IMG/VR virus record: IMGVR_UViG_3300028585_000007
DNA length: 44,116 bases
Source of the DNA: a virus
Direction: 5' to 3' (one strand)
The notes below the pieces were generated by a model. That model was not told where the DNA came from. It saw only the letters and a program-made list of their open reading frames with translations, and searched no databases. Positions 6,267 through 44,116 of this stretch are shown here, in pieces. The position numbers and the translations under genes were made by a program. Numbering within the stretch: the stretch's first letter is position 1; the number at the start of each line of letters is the position of its first letter.

Positions 6267-6296
6267 TTGACAAGCTGGTTGACTATGTGATAGGGT
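6267..6296 (+). promoter_or_regulatory. Sigma70-type promoter (class GTACTTGACA); the downstream gene appears leaderless
   Basis: TTGACA 6267-6272, 18-nt spacer, TGA-TAGGGT ending at 6296; ATG 6303 lies 6 nt after the -10. Confidence 0.7.
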
Positions 6297-6302
6297 GGTG
6301 GT

Positions 6303-6542
6303 ATGACATCCATTTTCGCTGCAAAGACACCGACCAATGAGTCGGTCGCGCGGCGGATCGGCCTCACCAACGCAGGAGTGAGCCGCATCCGACGCGGTAA
6401 CCGCATCCCCTCGAACTCGCGCATGCGTTTGATCGAGGCCGAGTACGGCTGGTCCATTGTCGACCAGTACATGGCTAAGCGCGGCGGAACCTACGCCGCC
6501 GAGTTCGAAGCGATCCTCAAGTCTGACGATGCCAAGGCCTAA
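6303..6542 (+). CDS. Small helix-turn-helix DNA-binding protein (first early gene)
   Basis: ESVARRIGLTNAGVSRIRRGNRIPS reads as an HTH; 79 aa. Confidence 0.65.
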   Translation: MTSIFAAKTPTNESVARRIGLTNAGVSRIRRGNRIPSNSRMRLIEAEYGWSIVDQYMAKRGGTYAAEFEAILKSDDAKA

Positions 6543-7935: not shown

Positions 7936-7965
7936 TTGTGCGGTAGGCGACTGGTATGCTATACT
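7936..7965 (+). promoter_or_regulatory. Promoter of the same family
   Basis: GTACTTGTGC (-35 TTGTGC 7936-7941), 18-nt spacer, TGC-TATACT ending at 7965. Confidence 0.6.
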
Positions 7966-8084
7966 GGTGGTACACCGGGACGGACACCCCCCCCCCAGTC
8001 TGGACCGGTCAGCAGGGCCGGGGATACTTCCCCCCCTTGGTCCCCGGCCCTGCGATCCCATCCACACAAATAAGGAGCAAACCA
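7966..8084 (+). promoter_or_regulatory. Structured C-rich 5' leader (C10 tract plus a 12-bp hairpin with a C7 loop)
   Basis: C10 at 7987-7996; CAGGGCCGGGGA (8013-8024) pairs with TCCCCGGCCCTG (8041-8052); loop TACTTCCCCCCCTTGG; then TAAGGAGCAAACCA-GTG. Confidence 0.5.
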
Positions 8085-8576: not shown

Positions 8577-8606
8577 TTGACACATACGTATACCGCATGG
8601 TAGGAT
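8577..8606 (+). promoter_or_regulatory. Promoter (class GTACTTGACA); leaderless start
   Basis: TTGACA 8577-8582, 18-nt spacer, TGG-TAGGAT ending at 8606; ATG 8612. Confidence 0.7.
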
Positions 8607-8611
8607 AGATT

Positions 8612-9214
8612 ATGCCCGCAATTAGCCAGCTTCGCATCCCCGCGCGACACCGCGCCACACTGCCCGAGCCGAAGGACGCGCGGTTCCCGTGCAACTTCTG
8701 CCGCACGAACGACCACAACCTGTGCCCTCGGGTGTACAGGAACGGGTCGGGATCCATCCACTTCTGCCCCTGCAACACTCAGCACGACCCTCGCGTGGTC
8801 CGGTGCACCGAGTGCTACAACACGAACGAGGGCGAGGTGGACACGAAGGTCTGGCTCTGCAACGACGTCGAGGCGTGCGGCGAGCGGATCATGCGCCGGG
8901 TCGAGAAGACCGAGGTGTACCAGCAGATCACGCAGGCTCAGGACTCCGCCCGCGAGAAGCAGATCGCGGAGGGCAAGCGCAAGCCCGCACGCCCGCGCGG
9001 CGAGGGTCGGCCCAAGACCGGCCAGTGCCTCTGCTGCGGCGAAACCACGGGCGGCGGCAAGTTCAAGCCCGGGCACGACGCGCGCATGGTCAGCCAGCTC
9101 GCGACCAAGGTCCAGGAGGGTGCCGACGCGGACAAGGTCAAAGCCGACTTCGCCGCGCTCGGTGTCTCCGACGCACTCCAAGCCAAACTCGCCAAGCGGA
9201 TCGGAAACCTGTGA
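8612..9214 (+). CDS. Cys-rich (multi zinc-ribbon-like) protein with a C-terminal CxCC...PGHDAR module (paralog family member 3)
   Basis: 13 Cys in the first 90 aa; C139-L-C-C...FKPGHDAR (aa 151-158). Confidence 0.7.
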   Translation: MPAISQLRIPARHRATLPEPKDARFPCNFCRTNDHNLCPRVYRNGSGSIHFCPCNTQHDPRVVRCTECYNTNEGEVDTKVWLCNDVEACGERIMRRVEKTEVYQQITQAQDSAREKQIAEGKRKPARPRGEGRPKTGQCLCCGETTGGGKFKPGHDARMVSQLATKVQEGADADKVKADFAALGVSDALQAKLAKRIGNL

Positions 9215-12684: not shown

Positions 12685-12738
12685 GGCGCGCGCCCCAACC
12701 CCTATGGTATACTAGCCGTAGGGCGCGGGGCGCGCGCC
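12685..12738 (+). terminator. Long hairpin with an extended -10 (TGGTATACT 12705-12713) inside its loop
   Basis: GGCGCGCGCCCC (12685-12696) pairs perfectly with GGGGCGCGCGCC (12727-12738), followed by TTT. Confidence 0.55.
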
Positions 12739-12756
12739 TTTAGAGTTAGGACAGCC

Positions 12757-12945
12757 ATGAGCAACACCAGCTACACCACGCACGAGAAGTCAGCGAGAGA
12801 GATACACGTCCTCCCGGTGGCGGATCTCATGGTCCACGAAGAAACCGAGGACTGCATCTGCGGTCCCCTGGTGCAAGTGGGTCCCGAAGGGGTGGTCGTC
12901 GGTCACCGCTCGCTCGACGGGCGAGAAGTACTTGACAAGCACTAA
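12757..12945 (+). CDS. Hypothetical protein (62 aa, HEETEDCICGP motif)
   Basis: Track ORF preceded by GTTAGGACAGCC. Confidence 0.6.
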   Translation: MSNTSYTTHEKSAREIHVLPVADLMVHEETEDCICGPLVQVGPEGVVVGHRSLDGREVLDKH

Positions 12946-17698: not shown

Positions 17699-17728
17699 TT
17701 GCGGTCCTCATAACCTATATGGTATACT
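17699..17728 (+). promoter_or_regulatory. Promoter (class CTTGCGG); leaderless start
   Basis: TTGCGG 17699-17704, 18-nt spacer, TGG-TATACT ending at 17728; ATG 17735. Confidence 0.65.
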
Positions 17729-17734
17729 CGTGGT

Positions 17735-17989
17735 ATGGCAGACTACACTACACCTTGGGACCGAATTGACGACCTTGAGTCGGCTACCACCAGTGAGATC
17801 CTCACGTCGGTCCGCAAGGTGTCCAACACCCTGAACTCGATGCGTAACAAGATCGACTACGCGAACCAGACTGAGGTTCATTCTCGGCTGGGCCTGCGGC
17901 AGATCGACGAGCACAACGTTCGCGTCGCTCAGTACCGGGCGGGGTTGGTGTACATCGCGGAAATGATCCGCGAGCTGCTCGCCCGCTAA
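17735..17989 (+). CDS. Hypothetical protein (84 aa)
   Basis: Track ORF; the stop overlaps the next ATG. Confidence 0.65.
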   Translation: MADYTTPWDRIDDLESATTSEILTSVRKVSNTLNSMRNKIDYANQTEVHSRLGLRQIDEHNVRVAQYRAGLVYIAEMIRELLAR

Positions 17990-18228
17990 TGCTTCACGCG
18001 AGCCGCAGGACCTACTACGCGGGGTGCCGTTGCCAGATGTGCGTAGATGCTCACGCTTACTACAAGCGTGCAATGCGCAAGCAGCGTCGCGAGCGGCTGG
18101 CGCGGGAGGTCCCTGACCACGTGCACGGCACGGTCAACGGGTACAATAACTACAACTGCCGGTGTGATCGTTGCCTTACCGCATACTCTGAGTTCTGCAG
18201 GTCGGACACACTTGCGCCGGAGTCCTGA
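17989..18228 (+). CDS. Small protein with repeated GC(R)C-x2-C zinc-knuckle-like motifs; probable DNA binding
   Basis: YYAGCRCQMCVDAHAYY and GYNNYNCRCDRCLTAY form two copies of the same motif. Confidence 0.6.
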   Translation: MLHASRRTYYAGCRCQMCVDAHAYYKRAMRKQRRERLAREVPDHVHGTVNGYNNYNCRCDRCLTAYSEFCRSDTLAPES

Positions 18229-18240
18229 GTGTGGTAGGCT
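18212..18240 (+). promoter_or_regulatory. Promoter (class CTTGCGC); leaderless start
   Basis: TTGCGC 18212-18217, 17-nt spacer, TGG-TAGGCT ending at 18240; ATG 18247. Confidence 0.6.
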
Positions 18241-18246
18241 AGGGGT

Positions 18247-18543
18247 ATGACAGTCCGCACGGTTCCCACCGCGCTCGTGTCGAAGCAGCACCCGAATGAG
18301 GCGCAGCTGAACCCCGAGTCGGTGGCAGCATTTGAAGCTCTCCAGAAGGACCCACACACGTGGGTTGTCTGGCAGAGCGGCTTTGCCCATCACAAGGCAA
18401 GCAAGGCGCAGGCCTACAACCTGCGTAACGGCAAGCGCCAGAAGCTCCTCACGGCTGGCCACGACCTGGAGTTCAAGGCTTGGAAGGATCCCGACACGGG
18501 TGACTACCAGGTGATCGCCCGGTTCGCAGGAGGCGACGAGTAG
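18247..18543 (+). CDS. Hypothetical protein (98 aa)
   Basis: Track ORF; the stop overlaps the polymerase GTG. Confidence 0.6.
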   Translation: MTVRTVPTALVSKQHPNEAQLNPESVAAFEALQKDPHTWVVWQSGFAHHKASKAQAYNLRNGKRQKLLTAGHDLEFKAWKDPDTGDYQVIARFAGGDE

Positions 18544-24710: not shown

Positions 24711-25463
24711 GTGCTGGAGCAAATCAAGACGCAGGTGCAACTCCTGACGTCACCCATTCGTCACGCGTTTTGGCAGGACCCCGAGGTCGAGGGCGACGCC
24801 CGGGTGTTGCGTACCACGTTCGCGCCTTCGCTCATCGACCAGCTCGACGCCTCCATCGGTTCAGGTGGGGGCACAGGCGCGGGCGGTGTCGGTGAGAAGC
24901 GGACAAGAAATATCCTAGATTCCGCTGCGGTGGAACTACTGACAGAGATAAAAACAGGTATAGGTGCCCTGTGGATAGAAGAATATAGGGGTAGGGACAG
25001 AAAGATATATACTGTTCCCCCGAAGCTTCTACTGAACGACTGGTTCCGGCTGCACGCGCGTCGGTACGTTCAGGACGGGTTCGTGCCGGACCCGCACGAG
25101 GGTGAACGCCAGTTGCGTATCCTCCGAGGCTGGGTCAGTGCGATCGAGTCCAAGTTCGACCCGCCCCGCAAGATCGAGCTGCTGGTCCACTGCCCGGGCC
25201 TGATCGAGGTCGACGGTCTGTGGTACGACTGCCAGGAGCGGTTCTACTACGACCCAGCTGGAGATAGATCCTCCGCCGTTGTGGCGTCAGTGACTTCGGA
25301 CGGTCGAGTCTACGTGGCGTGCAAGGTGTGTAAGTCCTCGTGGCACGGCCCCCGTGAGCTGGGCGAGCTGGGCGGTGCTCTGGGCCTGGACGTGGCGGCG
25401 GCGCTCACGGCGGTGTCGTCGGAGGCGGACGAGAACGCAGCCGCAGCTGGGGCGGAGTCGTAA
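24711..25463 (+). CDS. Hypothetical protein with a C-terminal Cys cluster (HCPG...C...CKVC); contains an AT-rich rare-codon patch
   Basis: GTG 24711 follows GAGGGA; the track start TTG 24687 is an alternative. Confidence 0.6.
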   Translation: MLEQIKTQVQLLTSPIRHAFWQDPEVEGDARVLRTTFAPSLIDQLDASIGSGGGTGAGGVGEKRTRNILDSAAVELLTEIKTGIGALWIEEYRGRDRKIYTVPPKLLLNDWFRLHARRYVQDGFVPDPHEGERQLRILRGWVSAIESKFDPPRKIELLVHCPGLIEVDGLWYDCQERFYYDPAGDRSSAVVASVTSDGRVYVACKVCKSSWHGPRELGELGGALGLDVAAALTAVSSEADENAAAAGAES

Positions 25464-25465
25464 GG

Positions 25466-25534
25466 TGGCCCGGCTTCGAGGTGGCCCGGCTTCGACGACA
25501 TCAAAATGGCCCGGCTTCAAAATGGCCCGGCTTC
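25466..25534. repeat. Four direct copies of TGGCCCGGCTTC
   Basis: Copies at 25466, 25482, 25507 and 25523 (spacing 16, 25 and 16 nt). Confidence 0.95.
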
Positions 25535-25659
25535 GACGGACCTTCTGGTCGATCGCGTTCAGCCCTCGGTCTTGGTCAATATTCGGCTATTCGGGTATGG
25601 GCGCGTTCTGCGCATGGATATACCTCAAACTGAGTGGACTGTTATAGACATACAGATGT

Positions 25660-25689: not shown

Positions 25690-25974
25690 TTAGTCGTTGT
25701 ACAGCTTGGACTGGATCCCTCGCACGACCATGCTGAGGTGTCGGCGCGTTGTGACGCTGGTCGAGTGCGGGAACAGAACCATCCAGGTGCCCTCGCCGGG
25801 CGCGTCGAGGTCGGGTTGGAAGATCGCTATGACTGTGCTGTACGAGGTGACCTGCAGCTGCTCGTAGTCGGCGTCGTCGGGCGTCATCCACTCTGCCCGT
25901 AGGTTACCCGCGTCGAACGGGATGTTCTTGCGGATCAGCTCGGGGACGTCGGACTGGTACACTTTGCCGGACAT
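25690..25974 (-). CDS. Hypothetical protein (94 aa); the only minus-strand gene
   Basis: ATG at 25974 is preceded by AAGGAGCAGTAC on the minus strand; the upstream extension of the track ORF covers its own promoter. Confidence 0.65.
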   Translation of the reverse strand: MSGKVYQSDVPELIRKNIPFDAGNLRAEWMTPDDADYEQLQVTSYSTVIAIFQPDLDAPGEGTWMVLFPHSTSVTTRRHLSMVVRGIQSKLYND

Positions 25975-26022
25975 GTACTGCTCCTTGTTGTCTGCGCGCG
26001 CCGTGTGCGCGCGTCTGCCACG

Positions 26023-26052
26023 AGTATACCACACATATTGCCCGTGCCGCAA
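26023..26052 (-). promoter_or_regulatory. Minus-strand promoter of the same family
   Basis: The reverse complement reads TTGCGG - 18 nt - TGG-TATACT; a leader hairpin GCGCGC/GCGCGC lies at 25994-26012. Confidence 0.65.
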
Positions 26053-26086
26053 GCAGGTCCACGACACGCCCGGGCTGCACGGGGAC

Positions 26087-26115
26087 TTGCGGACTCAGAG
26101 AGGGCGTGGTATACT
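26087..26115 (+). promoter_or_regulatory. Promoter divergent from the minus-strand one
   Basis: ACTTGCGG (-35 at 26087-26092), 17-nt spacer, TGG-TATACT ending at 26115; leader hairpin at 26127-26143. Confidence 0.65.
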
Positions 26116-26164
26116 AGTTGTAGACAGGGTGGAGGTACCGCCCGCAGAGAACCAGGAGCACACC

Positions 26165-26557
26165 ATGACTGAGAACACCGTCACCCTCGCCAACTGCAAG
26201 TGCGGCTGCAAGCAGCAGGTCGGAAGCGTCGACAGCTTCTACCGCCCCGGCCACGACGCCCGCCACGCTGGAGACGTCGCCCGCAGCATCCTCGACGACG
26301 GCGACCGCAAGCACCTCGACGCGCTCCCCACGGACGCACTCAAGGCCAAGTCCGAGGCCCTCGCGGTGAAGTGGATGACCGCCGCCGAGGCCAAGGCCGC
26401 GAAGAAGGCCGAACGCGAGGCAGCCAAGGTCGCCAAGGAGGCCGAGGCCAAGGGCGAGCAGCCCGAGGCCCCCAACAAGACCCGCGCCCGCCGCGAGCTG
26501 GCGAGCATGAAGGAGCGGTCCGAGAAGGCAGCTGAGAAGGCCGGTGCGACCAAGTGA
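26165..26557 (+). CDS. CxCxC-PGHDAR protein with an Ala/Lys/Glu-rich tail (paralog family member 1)
   Basis: C11-K-C-G-C...FYRPGHDARH (aa 26-34); the tail is AAEAKAAKKAEREAAKVAKEAEAK. Confidence 0.7.
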   Translation: MTENTVTLANCKCGCKQQVGSVDSFYRPGHDARHAGDVARSILDDGDRKHLDALPTDALKAKSEALAVKWMTAAEAKAAKKAEREAAKVAKEAEAKGEQPEAPNKTRARRELASMKERSEKAAEKAGATK

Positions 26558-26706
26558 TGACGGTCTACGGGTACCGGTTCAACTCGACGTCCCCCGTGGT
26601 CTGGACTGACTGGACCAGCGAGGAAGCTATCGCCATGGCCAAGCAGCACAACCTGATGATCGTCGCCCAGGAGCAGGCCGCGCTCCGGATCGTGAGCATC
26701 CGATGA
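26557..26706 (+). CDS. Small ORF (49 aa), not in the track
   Basis: ATG 26557 overlaps TGA 26555-26557, and its TGA 26704-26706 overlaps the next ATG 26703. Confidence 0.55.
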   Translation: MTVYGYRFNSTSPVVWTDWTSEEAIAMAKQHNLMIVAQEQAALRIVSIR

Positions 26707-26891
26707 GGTTCCGCACAGGGTTCCAAGTCCAGGTGAAGATCAGCAGCGCCGTCTGGTGGACGGTCAAGGAGGTCGACGGTGTCGCAGCGAGTGCAAGGAT
26801 CGCAGAAGAAACAGCCCAAGACGAGCGGCGAGATGTCAGGGTGGTTAGCCGCGAGGGTAAGGTGACCCACAAGATCGTCCAGTCGAAGTAA
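26703..26891 (+). CDS. Hypothetical protein (62 aa)
   Basis: Track ORF with ATGA coupling. Confidence 0.6.
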   Translation: MRFRTGFQVQVKISSAVWWTVKEVDGVAASARIAEETAQDERRDVRVVSREGKVTHKIVQSK

Positions 26892-26900
26892 CACCCAGGA

Positions 26901-26923
26901 AGCCCCGGACTTGCGCCGGGGCT
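26901..26923 (+). terminator. Hairpin terminator whose loop carries the next promoter's -35
   Basis: AGCCCCGG / CCGGGGCT, 8-bp perfect stem. Confidence 0.65.
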
Positions 26924-26940
26924 AACCTGTGTGGTATACT
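26911..26940 (+). promoter_or_regulatory. Promoter of the family
   Basis: TTGCGC 26911-26916, 18-nt spacer, TGG-TATACT ending at 26940; leader hairpin GGGCGG-AGAG-CCGCCC at 26952-26967. Confidence 0.65.
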
Positions 26941-26988
26941 AGGTGTAGACAGGGCGGAGAGCCGCCCGCAGAGCACAAGGAGCAGAGC

Positions 26989-27240
26989 ATGGACGAGAAG
27001 CCCAACACCAAGACCAGCACCCTGATCGAGTTCATAGAAACCGAAGTGGTGCGCGAGTTCGTCGAAGTCATGGGTTACAACGAGGAAGACTTCGAAGAGA
27101 CCGACCTCATCCACGTGACCATGTTCTACACCCACCGCATGACCAAGCAGGGGTGGACCCTGGAGCAGCTGCGAGAGGTGAAGTGGGACGCGGACACCTG
27201 GAAGCAGGTGCTCAACTGGGGCGAGGGGTACAGCGCATGA
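26989..27240 (+). CDS. Hypothetical acidic protein (83 aa)
   Basis: ATG 26989 follows AAGGAGCAGAGC. Confidence 0.65.
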   Translation: MDEKPNTKTSTLIEFIETEVVREFVEVMGYNEEDFEETDLIHVTMFYTHRMTKQGWTLEQLREVKWDADTWKQVLNWGEGYSA

Positions 27241-27548
27241 CCGAGGAGCAGAAGGCAGCAGAGGTCGCGGACCGCGAGCGCCGACTCGAAGAGAACCACG
27301 GGATGATGCCCGAAGAACACGAACCGAAGGAGAAGACTCCCCCGCCTGGCCGTGGCGAAAAGGGCTACGACCCCAACCTCCAGGCGAAGCCGAAGCCATG
27401 GCCGATGGGACGGGTGCTCGCGGTCGCGGCAGTGCTGGCGGGACTGATACTGGGCCTGGCCAACTGCCAGGGATGGAACTACCAAGACACCCCGCCCGTG
27501 GGCGACACGCAACAGACCATAGATTGCGAACTGAGGGGGATGTGCTGA
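27237..27548 (+). CDS. Membrane-anchored protein (one internal TM)
   Basis: ATGA overlap; GRVLAVAAVLAGLILGLA. Confidence 0.6.
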   Translation: MTEEQKAAEVADRERRLEENHGMMPEEHEPKEKTPPPGRGEKGYDPNLQAKPKPWPMGRVLAVAAVLAGLILGLANCQGWNYQDTPPVGDTQQTIDCELRGMC

Positions 27549-27564
27549 GGGAGGGATAAAGACA

Positions 27565-27605
27565 AGGATAGATAGGGATAGAGATAGGGATAGATATAGG
27601 TATAG
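27565..27605. repeat. Tandem hexamer array NNATAG (GGATAG ATAG GGATAG AGATAG GGATAG ATATAG GTATAG)
   Basis: GATAG at 27567, 27571, 27577, 27583 and 27589, then TATAG at 27595 and 27601. Confidence 0.9.
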
Positions 27606-27633
27606 TACCCGACACGCCCGGGCTTCACGTGGC

Positions 27634-27663
27634 TTGTGCTGGGGCGAACTGATCTGATAGACT
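27634..27663 (+). promoter_or_regulatory. Promoter of the family
   Basis: CTTGTGC (-35 at 27634-27639), 18-nt spacer, TGA-TAGACT ending at 27663. Confidence 0.6.
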
Positions 27664-27720
27664 AGCTCTTGCACAGGTGACGAGTACCTCCTGGATCGGG
27701 ACGCACGGCACGACGCACGA

Positions 27721-27752
27721 CCCCCAACCCTCATTGCTCCGAGGGTTGGGGG
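27721..27752 (+). promoter_or_regulatory. Leader hairpin upstream of the HNH gene
   Basis: CCCCCAACCCTC / GAGGGTTGGGGG, 12-bp perfect stem, 8-nt loop. Confidence 0.55.
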
Positions 27753-27777
27753 TCGACCTGTACCCGGGGGTGACAAG

Positions 27778-28062
27778 ATGAGCGCCACTAGCGCCCGCAG
27801 CCGACGCTACCGCCAGATCTTCAAGGCGGAAAAGGAACGGTGCCGCACGACTGGCGGCAAGTGCTGGATCTGCCACCGCAAGATCGACTGCTCAATACCG
27901 AGCGTCGAGAAGTGGGGATTCAGCCTGGACCACGTAGACCCGACGGTGTTCGGCGGCGACCTGGAGCGACTGGCCAACCTCAAGTGGGCACACAAGCGGT
28001 GCAACAGCAGGCGAGGCGACGGTACGAACAAGAACGTACTGATCACCAGCCGCAAGTGGTAA
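27778..28062 (+). CDS. HNH endonuclease
   Basis: CWICHRKID ... SLDHVDP ... WAHKRCNSRRG (HNH His/Asn/His plus zinc Cys pairs). Confidence 0.85.
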   Translation: MSATSARSRRYRQIFKAEKERCRTTGGKCWICHRKIDCSIPSVEKWGFSLDHVDPTVFGGDLERLANLKWAHKRCNSRRGDGTNKNVLITSRKW

Positions 28063-28089
28063 GAAAAAAGAAATAATAAAAAATAAAAT
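28061..28089. other. Extreme A-rich tract
   Basis: aagaaaaaagaaataataaaaaataaaat in an otherwise GC-rich genome. Confidence 0.9.
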
Positions 28090-28115
28090 GGCCCGGCTTA
28101 AAATGGCCCGGCTTC
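28089..28115. repeat. Two more copies of TGGCCCGGCTT(C/A)
   Basis: Copies at 28089 and 28104. The surrounding AAAATGGCCCGGCTT.AAAATGGCCCGGCTTCGA nearly matches 25503-25537. Confidence 0.95.
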
Positions 28116-28154
28116 GAACGGTCTTCTTGCCAATCTCCACTCAGCCGGGTCGAG

Positions 28155-28168
28155 ACAACATATGTTGT
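28155..28168. repeat. Perfect 14-bp palindrome ACAACATATGTTGT flanked by direct CCGG(G)TCGAG
   Basis: Read directly; the flanking repeats are at 28145-28154 and 28173-28181. Confidence 0.9.
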
Positions 28169-28228
28169 TGGGCCGGTCGAGTCAGTGACTCCCAGCTGGC
28201 ATTCAGCTAAGGCTCAGCAAGCTCAGGG

Positions 28229-28257
28229 TTGCGCCGACGCCCGCGATGTGGTACAAT
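28229..28257 (+). promoter_or_regulatory. Promoter (upstream of two tandem promoters)
   Basis: TTGCGC 28229-28234, 17-nt spacer, TGG-TACAAT ending at 28257. Confidence 0.6.
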
Positions 28258-28353
28258 CGCGCGCCCGCGCCCGCTCGCGCCGCGCGGACAGAGAGGTCCG
28301 GCGACACTCAGCGAACTCACAGCAACCCGTTATCAGCTAGTTATCTCCCGGAC

Positions 28354-28382
28354 TTGCGCGGTGGTCCCCGGGGTGATAGACT
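28354..28382 (+). promoter_or_regulatory. Promoter (proximal)
   Basis: ACTTGCGC (-35 at 28354-28359), 17-nt spacer, TGA-TAGACT ending at 28382; leader hairpin CGAGGG-ACAGG-CCCTCG at 28398-28414. Confidence 0.65.
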
Positions 28383-28437
28383 GGTGGTACACCGGATCGA
28401 GGGACAGGCCCTCGGCAGGACACCACAGGAGCACACA

Positions 28438-28782
28438 ATGGCCACCACCGCCCGCACCCCCCGCAAGACCGCCGCCACCAAGACCGCCGCGAAGACCCCC
28501 GCGACCGCCCCCGCCGCCGCCCAGTGCCTGTGCGGCTGCGGCCTCCGAGTCGCCCCCCGCCGCTCGTGGCTCCCGGGTCACGACGCCCGCGCCGCTGGCG
28601 TCGCCGCCCGCGCCGCACTCACCGGGGACACAGCAGCCATTCAGGCGCTCCCCAGCGAGGCCCTCCGCACCAAGGCCGCCAACCTGGCAGCCCGCTGGGA
28701 GGCCGCTGCGAAGGACAAGGCCGACCGCGCCGCCGAGCGCGCCGCCGCCCGCGAGGCGAAGCTCGCAGCCGCCGCCAAGTAG
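28438..28782 (+). CDS. CxCxC-PGHDAR protein with an Ala/Lys/Thr-rich N-terminal tail (paralog family member 2)
   Basis: N-terminus TARTPRKTAATKTAAKTPATAPAAA, then C30-L-C-G-C...WLPGHDARA (aa 44-52); clear paralog of 26165-26557. Confidence 0.7.
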   Translation: MATTARTPRKTAATKTAAKTPATAPAAAQCLCGCGLRVAPRRSWLPGHDARAAGVAARAALTGDTAAIQALPSEALRTKAANLAARWEAAAKDKADRAAERAAAREAKLAAAAK

Positions 28783-28823
28783 ACTCACAGCTGAGTCACA
28801 GCAAGCCGTTACAGACCCGTTAT

Positions 28824-28852
28824 CGGCGGGGGGGTTGCGAGACCCCCCGCCG
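28824..28852 (+). terminator. Hairpin terminator whose loop carries the next promoter's -35
   Basis: CGGCGGGGGG / CCCCCCGCCG, 10-bp perfect stem. Confidence 0.65.
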
Positions 28853-28864
28853 GTATGGTAGACT
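28835..28864 (+). promoter_or_regulatory. Promoter of the family
   Basis: TTGCGA 28835-28840, 18-nt spacer, TGG-TAGACT ending at 28864. Confidence 0.6.
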
Positions 28865-28915
28865 GGTGTTAACAGATCGGGGGAGCCCCCCCGGCAGGAC
28901 GCAAGGAGTAAGACC

Positions 28916-29137
28916 ATGAGCCCCCAGACCATCGCGAACGCCCTGATCCACGCGATCCAGGACTACGAACGAGACGGCGGCGACAGCCCGCTCCTCGACA
29001 CGGCTGTGACGGAGCTGAAAGACCTCTGGAACGAAGCTATGGACAACCTGGACGCCGACGCCACGCGCGACGCCCACGCGACAGTGATCATGGCCCTCGG
29101 CATCGAGGCCGTCGACGCGTACGGGATCGACGCGTGA
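28916..29137 (+). CDS. Hypothetical acidic protein (73 aa)
   Basis: ATG follows AAGGAGTAAGACC. Confidence 0.65.
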   Translation: MSPQTIANALIHAIQDYERDGGDSPLLDTAVTELKDLWNEAMDNLDADATRDAHATVIMALGIEAVDAYGIDA

Positions 29138-29429: not shown

Positions 29430-29539
29430 AGCCGTGTCCCATCCAGAACACAGGATACACACAGACACGACCCAGTGGACGTACAGCTAGGACTCAGTTC
29501 CCACGCTGTCCGTCCGCTGGGTCGCAGTTGTGTTCGCGC

Positions 29540-29900
29540 TGTGCGTTCGCTGGTCGTTAGCTGAACGTGAGTTGGACGTCGTACTACCGATCGGATCTGA
29601 GTCCCGACCGTACGTCACCTGAACGTGAGCTGGGCGTGGTACTACCGACCCCATCTGCACGTGGACTGTACGTTGTCTGAATGCGGGCTGTGCGTGCGGT
29701 CACTGACCGCGGACCGTACGTCCGCTGAGTGTGGGCTGTGGGTTGGCTGATTGCGAGCTGCGTTCGCTTAGCTGTGAGTTGGGTGTGTGCAGTCTGTGAA
29801 TCCCCCGTGTGGGTTCTGTGCGTTCGCTTTGCTTTTGCTGAGTTCGTTCTACTGAGTTTCCGCTGTGTGTTTGCTGAATGCGCGTTGGGTGTGACCTGGG
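29540..29900. repeat. Array of degenerate ~50-58-bp direct repeats in a GT-skewed non-coding region upstream of terS
   Basis: CTGAACGTGAGTTGGACGTCGTACTACCGA (29561-29590) matches 29619-29648 at 26/30. GACCGTACGTC occurs at 29606 and 29712. (G)TGCGTTCGCT occurs at 29541, 29759 and 29818. There are many CTGA(A/G)NGNG(A/G)GCTG cores. Confidence 0.85.
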
Positions 29901-38985: not shown

Positions 38986-39014
38986 TTGCGGTAGGCTAGC
39001 CGGTCTGCTATACT
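38986..39014 (+). promoter_or_regulatory. Promoter of the family inside the tail operon
   Basis: CACTTGCGG (-35 at 38986-38991), 17-nt spacer, TGC-TATACT ending at 39014; leader hairpin GGTGCGCG / CGCGCACC at 39019-39049. Confidence 0.55.
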
Positions 39015-39092
39015 GGGGGGTGCGCGTTTTCAGCCACGGGGCGCGCACCTCCCGCTTCACCCCTACCGTGGCACTACCCGTGGAAGGTACCA

Positions 39093-39698
39093 ATGTCATC
39101 CCTTGACGCAAAACTCGAAAAGGCGCAGTTCGCCTATCGGGACCTCAACTTCTGCCTGGACGGACGCCTGAACAAGCTCCGTGACAAGGCACTCGCGGAG
39201 CTGTCCGCCGCGACCGGTCGCGCCGCAGCGACCGACGAGCGCAAAGACCCGGATGCTCGCCTGAGCAGCAACCCGGTCGCCGCCGCCAAGAAGAAGCTCG
39301 ACCAGATCGAAGAGCAGATGAAAGACCTGCTCGTCACGATCCGCTTCACGGCGGTCAACAACGGGGTCTGGCAGAAGCTCATCATCCAGAACCCGCCCCG
39401 CAAGGGCAACGCCGTCGACCAGGGCCTCGGGTTCAACACCCAGACCTTCTTCGACCGCGTCTGCCGGGAGACGGGCAAGCTCGTCGAGGAAATCGACCTC
39501 GACAACCCCGACGACGCCACGCTCGAACCGATCAGCGACTCGCAGTGGGACAAGCTCAGCGAGTCCTTCACCGCTGGTGACTGGGACCGCGTCGACATGA
39601 CGCTCATCGAGCTGAACCAGCGCGACGGCCAGAAGGACGTCGGCCATTTCGTGCGCGCCTCAAAGGAAACCCGCGACTCCGAGCCGACCTCGGACTAG
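39093..39698 (+). CDS. Tail assembly chaperone (short form)
   Basis: 201 aa between the major tail gene and the tape measure. Confidence 0.75.
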   Translation: MSSLDAKLEKAQFAYRDLNFCLDGRLNKLRDKALAELSAATGRAAATDERKDPDARLSSNPVAAAKKKLDQIEEQMKDLLVTIRFTAVNNGVWQKLIIQNPPRKGNAVDQGLGFNTQTFFDRVCRETGKLVEEIDLDNPDDATLEPISDSQWDKLSESFTAGDWDRVDMTLIELNQRDGQKDVGHFVRASKETRDSEPTSD

Positions 39699-43016: not shown

Positions 43017-44116
43017 ATGCTGATCAACACCGTCAAGAACCCGTCTGCAGAAACCAACACCGCATCGCTCGCCCCTGGTTCGAACGGTGCAGTAGGAATC
43101 TCAACAGACGCGGTGACCGGCCTGGGTGCCAGGTCGTACTATCTGCAGTCGAACACGGCAGCGCAATCCTCGTTCGGCTTGGTCGCCTCCGACTACGGGG
43201 TGGCCAAGCCGGGCGAGCGTTGGCACTTCCGGTGCCGCGCTCGTCTCGGGGGCATGATCGGCGCTCGTCGCCTCCGAACAGACCTGATCTTCAGGAACGC
43301 TTCGGGGGCTGCGTTGGCGTACATCCCAGCTGCGGTGGACTTCATCCCTGACGGGGTGTTCCACCGTTGGCTAGGCACGGCCAACGCGTCAGCGTCGGAG
43401 CGGTTGGAAGCCGGTGCTCGCCGGGTCAACGACATCACCGACCCACTGTTCACGAACTCGAACGCGTGGTACCGCAACCCCAGCGCGACCTACGACTTCG
43501 CTTCAGTTCCGGGCGCGGTAGTCATCGGAGTCACCACCGCTTTCCCTGCTAACGGTGCCTTGGTGACGTACCCTGCACAGGGTCAGGCCGTGGGCGAGTT
43601 TGGCTCGCCGAAAGCTTCGTCCTACCGCATTACGAACAAGGGTCCCACCGCGGTCAGTTTCTACGGCAACACCCGCGCGTACGGTTCGACGGCGTCCACG
43701 GACGGTCCCTCCAGTGCGGATCTTCTGTTGGAACCGGGCGCTTCGGGCGTACTCAGGATCCCCGCTGTGGTGCCCACCGGGGACAACCTGCTGGGTTACC
43801 GACCGCTGATCCGGACGCGCAGTGTTATCCCCGCTGGGCATGTCATCCAGGTGTCCGAGGCTATAGGTGAAACCGTAGCCACTAGCAACGACATCACAGG
43901 TTCGTTCTTCTCGGGAGCATCGGCCAACACCGGCACCGGTAAGAGCACTGACGTCCTAGACCTGGTGGTTTCCGCTGTCGCGCCCGCTGGTACTGCGTCC
44001 GTCAGTTTCTCGCTGTACCGTATGACGGACTACCAGCCCGGGGCCAACGACATCATCTACGTCGACAACCTCATGCTGGTGGAGCAGGACGGTCCGACCC
44101 CACCTTACGGGGATGG
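43017..44116 (+). CDS. 5' part of the wrap-around minor tail protein (continues at 128 after the overlap); the N-terminal region looks like carbohydrate-binding jelly-roll modules
   Basis: ATG 43017 abuts the tape measure TAA. I translated the whole stretch by hand and found no stop up to the window end. It is not in the track because it has no stop in the window. Confidence 0.8.
   Translation, partial: MLINTVKNPSAETNTASLAPGSNGAVGISTDAVTGLGARSYYLQSNTAAQSSFGLVASDYGVAKPGERWHFRCRARLGGMIGARRLRTDLIFRNASGAALAYIPAAVDFIPDGVFHRWLGTANASASERLEAGARRVNDITDPLFTNSNAWYRNPSATYDFASVPGAVVIGVTTAFPANGALVTYPAQGQAVGEFGSPKASSYRITNKGPTAVSFYGNTRAYGSTASTDGPSSADLLLEPGASGVLRIPAVVPTGDNLLGYRPLIRTRSVIPAGHVIQVSEAIGETVATSNDITGSFFSGASANTGTGKSTDVLDLVVSAVAPAGTASVSFSLYRMTDYQPGANDIIYVDNLMLVEQDGPTPPYGD
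43990..44116. repeat. Second copy of the window-terminal overlap
   Basis: Identical to 1-127. Confidence 0.95.

Follow-up and report, generated by a model that had tools for sequence, protein, structure and literature searches.

A family of promoter-fused hairpin leaders in front of unrelated small genes of a high-GC actinophage

The IMG/VR virus record IMGVR_UViG_3300028585_000007, whose 44,116 nucleotides (nt) were analyzed as a whole and are referred to here as the window, contains five copies of a short regulatory cassette, each consisting of a promoter fused to a transcribed leader and each placed in front of a small gene. The five leaders constitute one family; they share a common anatomy, their hairpin is maintained by covariation, leader type and downstream gene do not track each other, and the same layout recurs in related phages. 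The shared plan covers 45-52 nt and comprises a 6-7-bp GC hairpin, GCAG(A/G), a U-poor linker, an AGGAG Shine-Dalgarno (SD) sequence, and the ATG. Three copies are of type A, including that of the minus-strand gene, and two are of type B; they are listed here with the genes that they serve (aa, amino acids).

25975-26052, minus strand: cassette A3, with the −35 at 26052-26047, TGG and −10 TATACT at 26028-26023, and predicted +1 at 26016.
25975-26016, minus strand: leader of A3, with a 7-bp hairpin at 26013-25995 (GCGCGC-type stem), GCAGAC, AAGGAGCA at 25986-25979, and ATG at 25974.
25690-25974, minus strand: gene driven by A3, 94 aa, an ORFan.
26087-26164, plus strand: cassette A1, with −35 TTGCGG at 26087, TGG-TATACT at 26110-26115, and predicted +1 at 26122.
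26122-26164, plus strand: leader of A1, with a hairpin at 26127-26143 (GGGUGG/CCGCCC), GCAGAG, CAGGAGCA, and ATG at 26165.
26165-26557, plus strand: gene behind A1, 130 aa, a Cys-rich PGHDAR protein of phrog_5390.
26911-26988, plus strand: cassette A2, with −35 TTGCGC, TGG-TATACT at 26935-26940, and predicted +1 at 26947.
26947-26988, plus strand: leader of A2, with a hairpin at 26952-26967 (GGGCGG/CCGCCC; z −3.3), GCAGAG, AAGGAGCA, and ATG at 26989.
26989-27240, plus strand: gene behind A2, 83 aa, an ORFan unrelated to the 26165 gene.
28308-28437, plus strand: cassette B1, with the upstream segment shared with B2 (CACAGC repeats), −35 at 28354, TGA-TAGACT at 28377-28382, and predicted +1 at 28389.
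28389-28437, plus strand: leader of B1, with a hairpin at 28397-28415 (CGAGGG/CCCUCG), GCAGGAC, CAGGAGCA, and ATG at 28438.
28438-28782, plus strand: gene behind B1, 114 aa, a paralogue of the 26165 gene.
28783-28915, plus strand: cassette B2, with the shared upstream segment, −35 at 28835, TGG-TAGACT at 28859-28864, and predicted +1 at 28871.
28871-28915, plus strand: leader of B2, with a hairpin at 28877-28894 (CGGGGG/CCCCCG), GCAGGAC, AAGGAGUA, and ATG at 28916.
28916-29137, plus strand: gene behind B2, 73 aa, an ORFan unrelated to the 28438 gene.

A single leader family with a conserved hairpin

The original prediction had described two pairs of similar promoter-plus-leader units in front of unrelated genes, and its sequence observations hold. 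For the A pair, put there at about 80% identity, 26106-26167 and 26931-26991 are 85.5% identical over 62 columns (E 2.5e-11 against the genome), and the part from the −10 to the ATG is about 84% identical. The B pair indeed shares TAGACTGGTG, the hairpin, GGCAGGAC, and AGGAG, and its similarity reaches ~70 nt upstream of the −35 (78% over 169 columns). The proteins encoded behind A1 and A2, and those behind B1 and B2, are unrelated, as stated, and a short GC hairpin folds in each leader (26127-26143, 26952-26967, 28397-28415, and 28877-28894). The A(A/G)GGAGCA context, likewise confirmed, has five occurrences, all 5-6 nt before a start codon (genes 5836, 8085, 21070, minus-strand 25974, and 26989); the corresponding SD variant is CAGGAGCA in A1 and B1, and AAGGAGTA in B2. 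The A3 copy, the paralogy of the A1 and B1 genes, the unity of the A and B leaders, and the genome-wide nature of the promoter part go beyond that prediction.

The kinship of the two leader types was demonstrated with a covariance model built from A1-A3 only, searched unfiltered against both strands of the whole genome: the next-best matches are B2 (24 bits, E ~1e-5) and B1 (19.7 bits, E ~3e-4), both aligned by the model over their full length and with the hairpin in register. Weaker matches fall within genes, and no credible further member was found elsewhere on the two strands of the genome. The covariance-model alignment that the original prediction had proposed thus recovers the B leaders from the A leaders alone, with a hairpin kept by compensatory changes. 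In the resulting five-sequence alignment, all 30 of the 30 stem cells are paired and five of the six base pairs show two-sided changes; none of 500 shuffles reached these pairing and covariation values, and slid registers pair just 40-60% of cells. MAFFT alone set the A and B hairpins out of register.

Stem sequences differ among the copies, as do the loops (AGGUA, AGAG, ACACG, ACAGG, and AGCC), and conserved sequence is limited to the flanks, AGAC and GCAGR, with GCAG 3′ of the stem in all five copies. The third A-type copy, A3, makes this particularly clear, with an AGAC start, GCAGA, ACAAGGAGCAG, and spacing as in A1 and A2, and with a wholly different stem (GCGCGC versus GGGCGG) between these identical flanks. 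Furthermore, the products of the A1 and B1 genes are paralogues (46% over 61 aa, both phrog_5390) that carry different leader types, and A2, A3, and B2 serve three unrelated ORFans.

Because of their position at +4 to +27, the classical place of an operator, the inverted repeats might be regarded as DNA operators, just past the +1, at which a dimeric repressor would block RNA polymerase; with promoters that are otherwise uniform, selective control would need an additional site. The half-sites (GGGTGG, GGGCGG, GCGCGC, CGAGGG, and CGGGGG), however, have no common sequence, and compensatory substitutions are characteristic of single strands that fold, not of base-specific protein–DNA contacts, and no repressor-like gene was found among the neighboring proteins with Pfam and PHROG. 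This explanation is therefore very improbable, as the half-sites are unrelated and change by compensation.

In minimum-free-energy folds, the hairpin begins 3-7 nt from the predicted 5′ end, and B1, B2, and A3 leave the SD and AUG unpaired, whereas in A1 and A2 these are engaged in marginal 2-bp helices only. The fold of the first 30 nt is better than ~90% of random genome windows in 8 of the 13 leadered transcripts. No T-run or U-tract follows any of the five leader hairpins, and a terminator scan lists none of them. These observations bear on a further explanation, namely that the hairpins act close to the promoter, as attenuators, terminators, or antitermination (nut/put-like) signals that control read-through to the mini-operon that follows. 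GC stem-loops divide the region into a series of very short operons, and in the promoter-early stem-loop (PeSL) cassettes of T4-type phages, termination of transcription by the stem-loops has been demonstrated (PMC2839356), both of which speak for such a role. However, each hairpin precedes the gene that it serves and is confined to the transcript's first 27 nt; the hairpins are accompanied by neither a boxA-like conserved partner nor a conserved loop; and at A2 and B2 separate stem-loops upstream of the −35 already occupy the terminator position. A terminator is unlikely because of the missing U-tract, and a nut-like site because the loops differ, so that the explanation as a whole appears quite improbable. 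A lambda-type nut site (boxA plus boxB) was considered and rejected, given the five differing loops and the lack of an Rfam match. Indeed, Rfam 15 gave no match at gathering score in the whole window, and its sole match up to E 1 in 25900-29100 is a chance small nucleolar RNA.

Hairpins near the 5′ end are a general habit of this genome. Other transcripts opening with GC hairpins are found at 12720-12739 (within 12704-12759, where the promoter has the extended −10 only) and 39022-39046 (within 39009-39095), with unrelated sequences. In addition, the HNH endonuclease gene at 27778-28062 has a 108-nt leader (z −2.8) containing a 15-bp hairpin at 27718-27755 (CCCCCAACCCUC ... GAGGGUUGGGGG).

Promoters, start sites, and mosaic joints

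The promoter half of the cassettes follows a genome-wide consensus and is not special to them, the specially shared part being the transcribed leader. The strict pattern TTGCG-N16-20-TANACT has seven exact matches in the genome, versus 0.12 expected, and a looser pattern leads to ~16 regular promoters of one design: acTTGnnn, a 14-15-nt spacer, TGn, and TAnnnT. They resemble sigma-70-type, host-type promoters, and a standard promoter scanner overlooks them because their −35 is TTGCGn. Throughout the window, all promoters have an extended −10 (TGn) and near-consensus hexamers; six lie within the 3 kb of the cassette region. One additional promoter of the family (28229-28353; TTGCGC-N14-TGG-TACAAT) stands directly 5′ of B1 and reads into ~90 nt without an open reading frame (ORF). 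Its transcript also begins with a GC hairpin, and it may be a tandem promoter or drive a small RNA.

Four promoters (6267-6305, 8577-8614, 17699-17737, and 18212-18249) have leaderless starts, with the A of the ATG located 6-7 nt past the −10; leaderless mRNAs are frequent in Actinobacteria. Because these four ATGs sit there, the equivalent A, seven nt past the −10, is the likely +1 of the leadered promoters, and the +1 positions given for the five cassettes are predictions made in this way.

Between A1 and A2, the core promoters are 69% identical, a value not above that of many other promoter pairs, and the −35/−10 spacer is not conserved, whereas the leaders are 82-85% identical. With leaders so alike (82%) and core promoters so unremarkable, the duplicated unit extends from about −14 to the ATG. 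Global pairwise identity is otherwise a poor measure, the background being 45-65% for short GC-rich sequences. The similarity could in principle be no more than a trace of recent local duplications, combined with the usual constraints on strong promoters and SD sequences, around a functionless hairpin. Although all five copies lie inside 3 kb and GC-rich sequence folds readily, this is highly unlikely in view of the A1/A2 leaders being conserved where their spacer is not, A3 having retained the flanks while swapping its stem for another perfect stem, every stem position pairing in five of five copies, and the same layout being present in phages with proteins only about 45-54% identical.

Both A1 and B1 are composite. 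The 20-mer upstream of A1 (26062-26081, plus strand) is identical at 19 of 20 positions to 27610-27629, upstream of the 27634 promoter, so that A1 is a chimera with the upstream 20-mer of the 27634 promoter and the −14-to-ATG part of A2. The 16-mer ACTGGTGGTACACCGG recurs, as originally noticed, at exactly two sites, versus none expected: at 7963-7978 (plus strand), where it spans the −10 and +1 of the promoter designated 7936 or 7960, and at 28380-28395 in B1, with the leaders diverging beyond it. B1 is thus a mosaic whose −10/+1 segment is common with the 7960 promoter and whose hairpin and SD part is common with B2. Stem-loops upstream of the cassettes are clear at A2 and B2, and weak or absent at A1 and B1.

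26901-26923, plus strand: GC stem-loop past the stop codon of ORF 26703-26891, with the −35 of A2 inside its loop and 3′ arm (z −4.8).
28817-28858, plus strand: poly-G/poly-C stem-loop with the −35 of B2 (28835) within its loop (z −2.9).

The first of these may be a terminator/promoter composite. Since at A2 and B2 the stem-loop closing the previous mini-operon carries the −35, the whole intergenic unit would be a terminator-promoter-leader.

Genomic setting and related phages

The genome is that of a complete, circularly assembled phage of ~44 kb, in which bases 1-127 recur at 43990-44116. Its GC content is 63.6%, and all genes are on the plus strand except for one (25690-25974). According to PHROG matches and synteny, the gene order is terS (29989), terL (30338), portal, capsid (35032), tape measure (40095), and tail genes spanning the junction, followed by helicase (6457), Sak4 (12997), primase-polymerase (14645), PolA (18543), a PurZ-like gene (21070), and dUTPase (23142). 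This is the order of cluster AK Arthrobacter phages such as HunterDalle; the window phage is a high-GC actinophage, and its nearest isolates are at only 44% identity in the portal and 50-54% in PurZ.

After the dUTPase gene follows a 3.7-kb stretch of tiny genes (25.7-29.4 kb), ending ahead of the packaging genes, and all five cassettes lie within 25.97-28.92 kb of this ORFan-rich accessory segment, between the Z-base/dUTPase module and the packaging genes. The A1 gene is followed by two tiny ORFs (26557-26706 and 26703-26891), and the A2 gene by a 103-aa gene (27237-27548) with a hydrophobic stretch. Seven of the ten neighboring proteins have sub-threshold matches only in Pfam and PHROG. The 94-aa product of the minus-strand gene has no Pfam or PHROG match, and a single homologue (96% identical) among 5.8 billion proteins.

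Several repeats accompany this segment. Two AAAATGGCCCGGCTT(C) repeat clusters, at 25466-25536 and 28085-28117 (97% identical over 34 nt), flank the part containing A3, A1, A2, and the HNH gene, and an extremely AT-rich run (28060-28088) lies just ahead of the second. AT-rich and purine-rich GATAG-type repeats, odd in a 64% GC genome, occupy 27549-27605, 3′ of the 27237-27548 gene, with a similar patch near 24990-25010. Between the last small genes and terS, an array of GT-rich direct repeats of ~58 nt each (29530-29900) may be a packaging or origin region.

At the nucleotide level, no relative came up among 50,697 phage records when 25900-29100 was queried with megablast and blastn, the only matches being low-complexity Ala/Lys-coding ones. 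In IMG/VR, the PurZ protein gave no match and the portal protein one, of 70% identity, on a 6.5-kb contig without synteny (L001); exact cassette patterns have no match in IMG/VR. Nineteen exact-pattern matches in a metagenome collection were discarded as chance, none passing the covariance model. Close relatives at the protein level are P0002 (88% identical, on a 1320-nt contig) and P0042 (96%, on a 4363-nt contig), and distant kin were found through the profile of the phrog_5390 family.

Such distant kin show the same layout. Fifteen loci of cluster AK Arthrobacter phages have two or three tandem cassettes each, consisting of TTTGACn, a spacer, TGn-TTTAAT, six nt, the A(+1), 0-4 nt, a 6-9-bp GC hairpin, ~10 nt, AAGGAGCC, 4-5 nt, and ATG or TTG. 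These leaders are 42-50 nt long and their hairpin ends at about +21 to +25, in agreement with the window. The stems covary among the phages (GGGCCGG/CCGGUCC, GGGCCGG/CUGGCCC, and GGACCGG/CCGGUCC), a different hairpin takes the same position in one locus (L031), and the third AK cassette has two hairpin variants ahead of nearly identical proteins. Neither promoters nor stem-loops are mentioned in the paper that described cluster AK.

In HunterDalle, gp50 and gp51 are unrelated proteins with a common cassette (90% identical over 31 nt). Furthermore, the family-1 gene (77 aa) is absent and the c2 leader is fused to the family-2 gene, a joint that would be the expected product of a crossover between neighboring cassettes. 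In the same phage (L022, 40500-40610), the annotated TTG start of gene 52 (40582) is at the −35 of a family-type promoter, TTGACT-N14-TGG-TAAAGT; the true start is probably the ATG past the hairpin leader and GAAGGAGCC, ~80 nt downstream.

Similar leaders were found in Curtobacterium phage Parvaparticeps, on its single minus-strand gene at the syntenic spot, and in the uncultured loci L039 and L041, of which L039 shares TTGCGC, TGGTATACT, and AAGGAGCA elements with the window. A near-identical leader (ACCAGGGAGGGAGAG.CCCUCC) follows promoters in Parvaparticeps (L021, 6350-6400) and in the IMG/VR contig L041 (about 2010-2080), and a G-rich 5′ arm together with a GGAG-bearing purine loop is common among hairpins of this type. 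The window, Parvaparticeps, and HunterDalle each encode a minus-strand protein at the same place, with no detectable relatedness among the three. The A-copy model gave no full-length match to the leaders of Parvaparticeps, HunterDalle, L039, or L041, and the relatives' cassettes retain the layout, but not the AGAC and GCAGR flank sequences. Since the window model fails to score those leaders, the kinship is one of layout, synteny, and gene orthology or family, not of sequence homology.

Together, these data support the recombining half of the proposed mobile or recombining regulatory module—the cassette is repeated before unrelated genes, A1 and B1 are chimeric, and HunterDalle has its joint—and give no sign of autonomous mobility. 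The independent assortment of cassette and gene that was to be checked in related genomes is likewise seen in cluster AK, with the c2 leader of HunterDalle on a family-2 gene, the window lineage itself offering internal chimeras only.

Role of the cassette and comparison with known systems

We consider it somewhat probable that the element is a portable early-gene expression cassette, in which the 5′ hairpin stabilizes and insulates the mRNA, and that it doubles as a recombination substrate in the manner of PeSLs. On this proposal, host RNA polymerase with its primary sigma factor would start at a strong promoter composed of (g)acTTGCGn, a 14-15-nt spacer, an extended −10 TGn, and TA(T/G)ACT, and the transcript would begin at the A seven nt past the −10. 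The remainder of the leader, namely GCAG(A/G), the U-poor linker, the AAGGAGCA SD, and the ATG, would stay unpaired. The hairpin, selected for structure and not for sequence, would protect the message as a 5′-terminal stem-loop from 5′-end-dependent RNases (RNase E and RNase J of Actinobacteria, which possess both) and insulate the ribosome-binding site from upstream sequence, such that any small gene behind the cassette would be strongly expressed. The cassette copies would act as homology patches, between which recombination may duplicate, delete, or swap downstream genes. The genes served are probably early genes.

A stabilizing role fits the maintenance of structure without sequence, the fixed distance from the 5′ end, the unpaired SD, and the retention of the design across diverged phages. 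Both components have precedents: in E. coli as well as B. subtilis, mRNAs are stabilized by 5′-terminal stem-loops against decay that depends on the 5′ end (references in PMC3997798), and recombination between PeSL copies of T4-type phages was shown experimentally (PMC2839356).

Several points weigh against this proposal. The start sites are predicted, and in B1 and B2 they leave 6-8 nt ahead of the core hairpin (3 with the extended B1 helix); E. coli 5′ stabilizers tolerate roughly 4 nt before the hairpin, fewer than precede the B1/B2 core. The covariation comes from five sequences in an alignment fitted to the model itself, and since any GC-rich 45-mer folds, the z-scores of single-sequence folds stay modest (−0.6 to −3.3). 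The evidence for a stabilizing or expression role is anatomical, and recombination in the window lineage is deduced from internal mosaicism and from AK phages, whose cassettes match in layout only. Finally, the strictly conserved flanks (AGAC and GCAGR), present even in A3, are unexplained by a purely structural role.

Because the flanks are kept where the stem is replaced, something may also read the sequence, and a trans-acting factor must be counted as a serious rival, if an unlikely one. Here, the hairpin and its single-stranded flanks would be the site of a phage or host factor, such as a RegA-style repressor or an Aca2-like protein, through which the five cassettes would be co-regulated and shut off together. 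T4 RegA is an RNA-binding translational repressor, and the Aca2-like protein binds both DNA and RNA. The flanks of A1-A3, identical around the completely different stem of A3, the GCAG found 3′ of the stem throughout, and the clustering of the members in 3 kb, including the divergent promoter pair A3/A1 that is typical of a control region, all argue for such a factor. Against it, loops and stems differ, the relatives' cassettes keep the layout without the flank sequences, and none of the ten neighboring proteins has a helix-turn-helix or known RNA-binding domain. The RNA-binding factor suggested in the original prediction might exist, yet the flanks alone are conserved in sequence, and the loops and stems are not. 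In a more specific and improbable version, the hairpin and flanks (AGAC ... GCAGR) would be an RNA operator for a phage-encoded factor, and the five mini-operons an autoregulated post-transcriptional regulon, a counterpart of T4 RegA or Aca2 acting on 5′ untranslated regions, with a design conserved across Z-genome, Korravirus-like phages. The candidate reader would be the Cys-rich PGHDAR/Lys-Ala-tailed paralogues expressed by two of the cassettes.

For the expression cassette proposed here, PeSLs (T4-type RB49/phi1 and other T4-like myoviruses; PMC2839356, PMC4122927) are the closest functional analogue. In both systems, a repeated strong host sigma-70-type promoter, known by its sequence only in the present case, is combined with a GC (in PeSLs often poly-G/poly-C) stem-loop; the copies are concentrated in a variable region of small ORFans, one per gene or mini-operon. 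Recombination between PeSL copies deletes, inserts, and swaps genes, for which the chimeric window cassettes and the HunterDalle joint are the counterpart. However, there is no sequence relationship, and the host here belongs to the high-GC Gram-positive bacteria. In PeSLs, the stem-loop is a transcription terminator placed upstream of the promoter, whereas the conserved hairpin of the window lies past the +1, in the leader, without a U-tract; a clear upstream stem-loop is present at A2 and B2 only, and the window phage is uncultured.

The start-associated sequences (SAS), along with extended SAS (ESAS), of Cluster K mycobacteriophages, to which the original prediction likened the cassettes, are also repeats in the non-structural arm of actinophages, in one orientation and before the starts of genes of different families, with an AGGAG core, to which ESAS adds an inverted repeat just upstream; the function of SAS and ESAS is unproven. 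The comparison fails as to membership. SAS is a fixed 13-mer, GGGATAGGAGCCC, located 3-7 nt before start codons and absent from the window cassettes; in the genome, it has one match with 2 mismatches, off predicted gene starts, versus 1.1 expected by chance. ESAS arms are 17 bp (imperfect) with a per-phage consensus, whereas the window stems are 6-7 bp with five different sequences and no consensus. In addition, SAS and ESAS are not tied to promoters, whereas each copy in the window is joined to a promoter and lies at its transcript's 5′ end.

The 5′ stabilizers of E. coli (ompA and papA leaders) and B. subtilis (aprE leader; references in PMC3997798) resemble the window leaders in that an accessible, strong ribosome-binding site comes next and structure matters rather than sequence. 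From the predicted +1, 3-7 unpaired 5′ nt are found in the window and 0-4 in AK phages. Unlike the window leaders, whose role is deduced from anatomy, these stabilizers belong to single host genes with measured half-lives, and the conserved flanks of the window are without counterpart among them.

The cassette is thus a real and fairly ordinary kind of phage regulatory module, and not a new principle. For annotation, such cassettes mark true gene starts, as for gene 52 of HunterDalle, and bound accessory-gene slots in which anti-defense or host-takeover genes are likely to sit. The part of ~80 nt composed of promoter, 5′ hairpin, and SD appears to drive expression independently of context and could serve as a portable expression element for Micrococcales. 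If the proposal is true, the use of a regulatory cassette as a shuffling joint would extend from T4-type phages of Gram-negative hosts to high-GC Z-base actinophages, including the cultivable cluster AK Arthrobacter phages.

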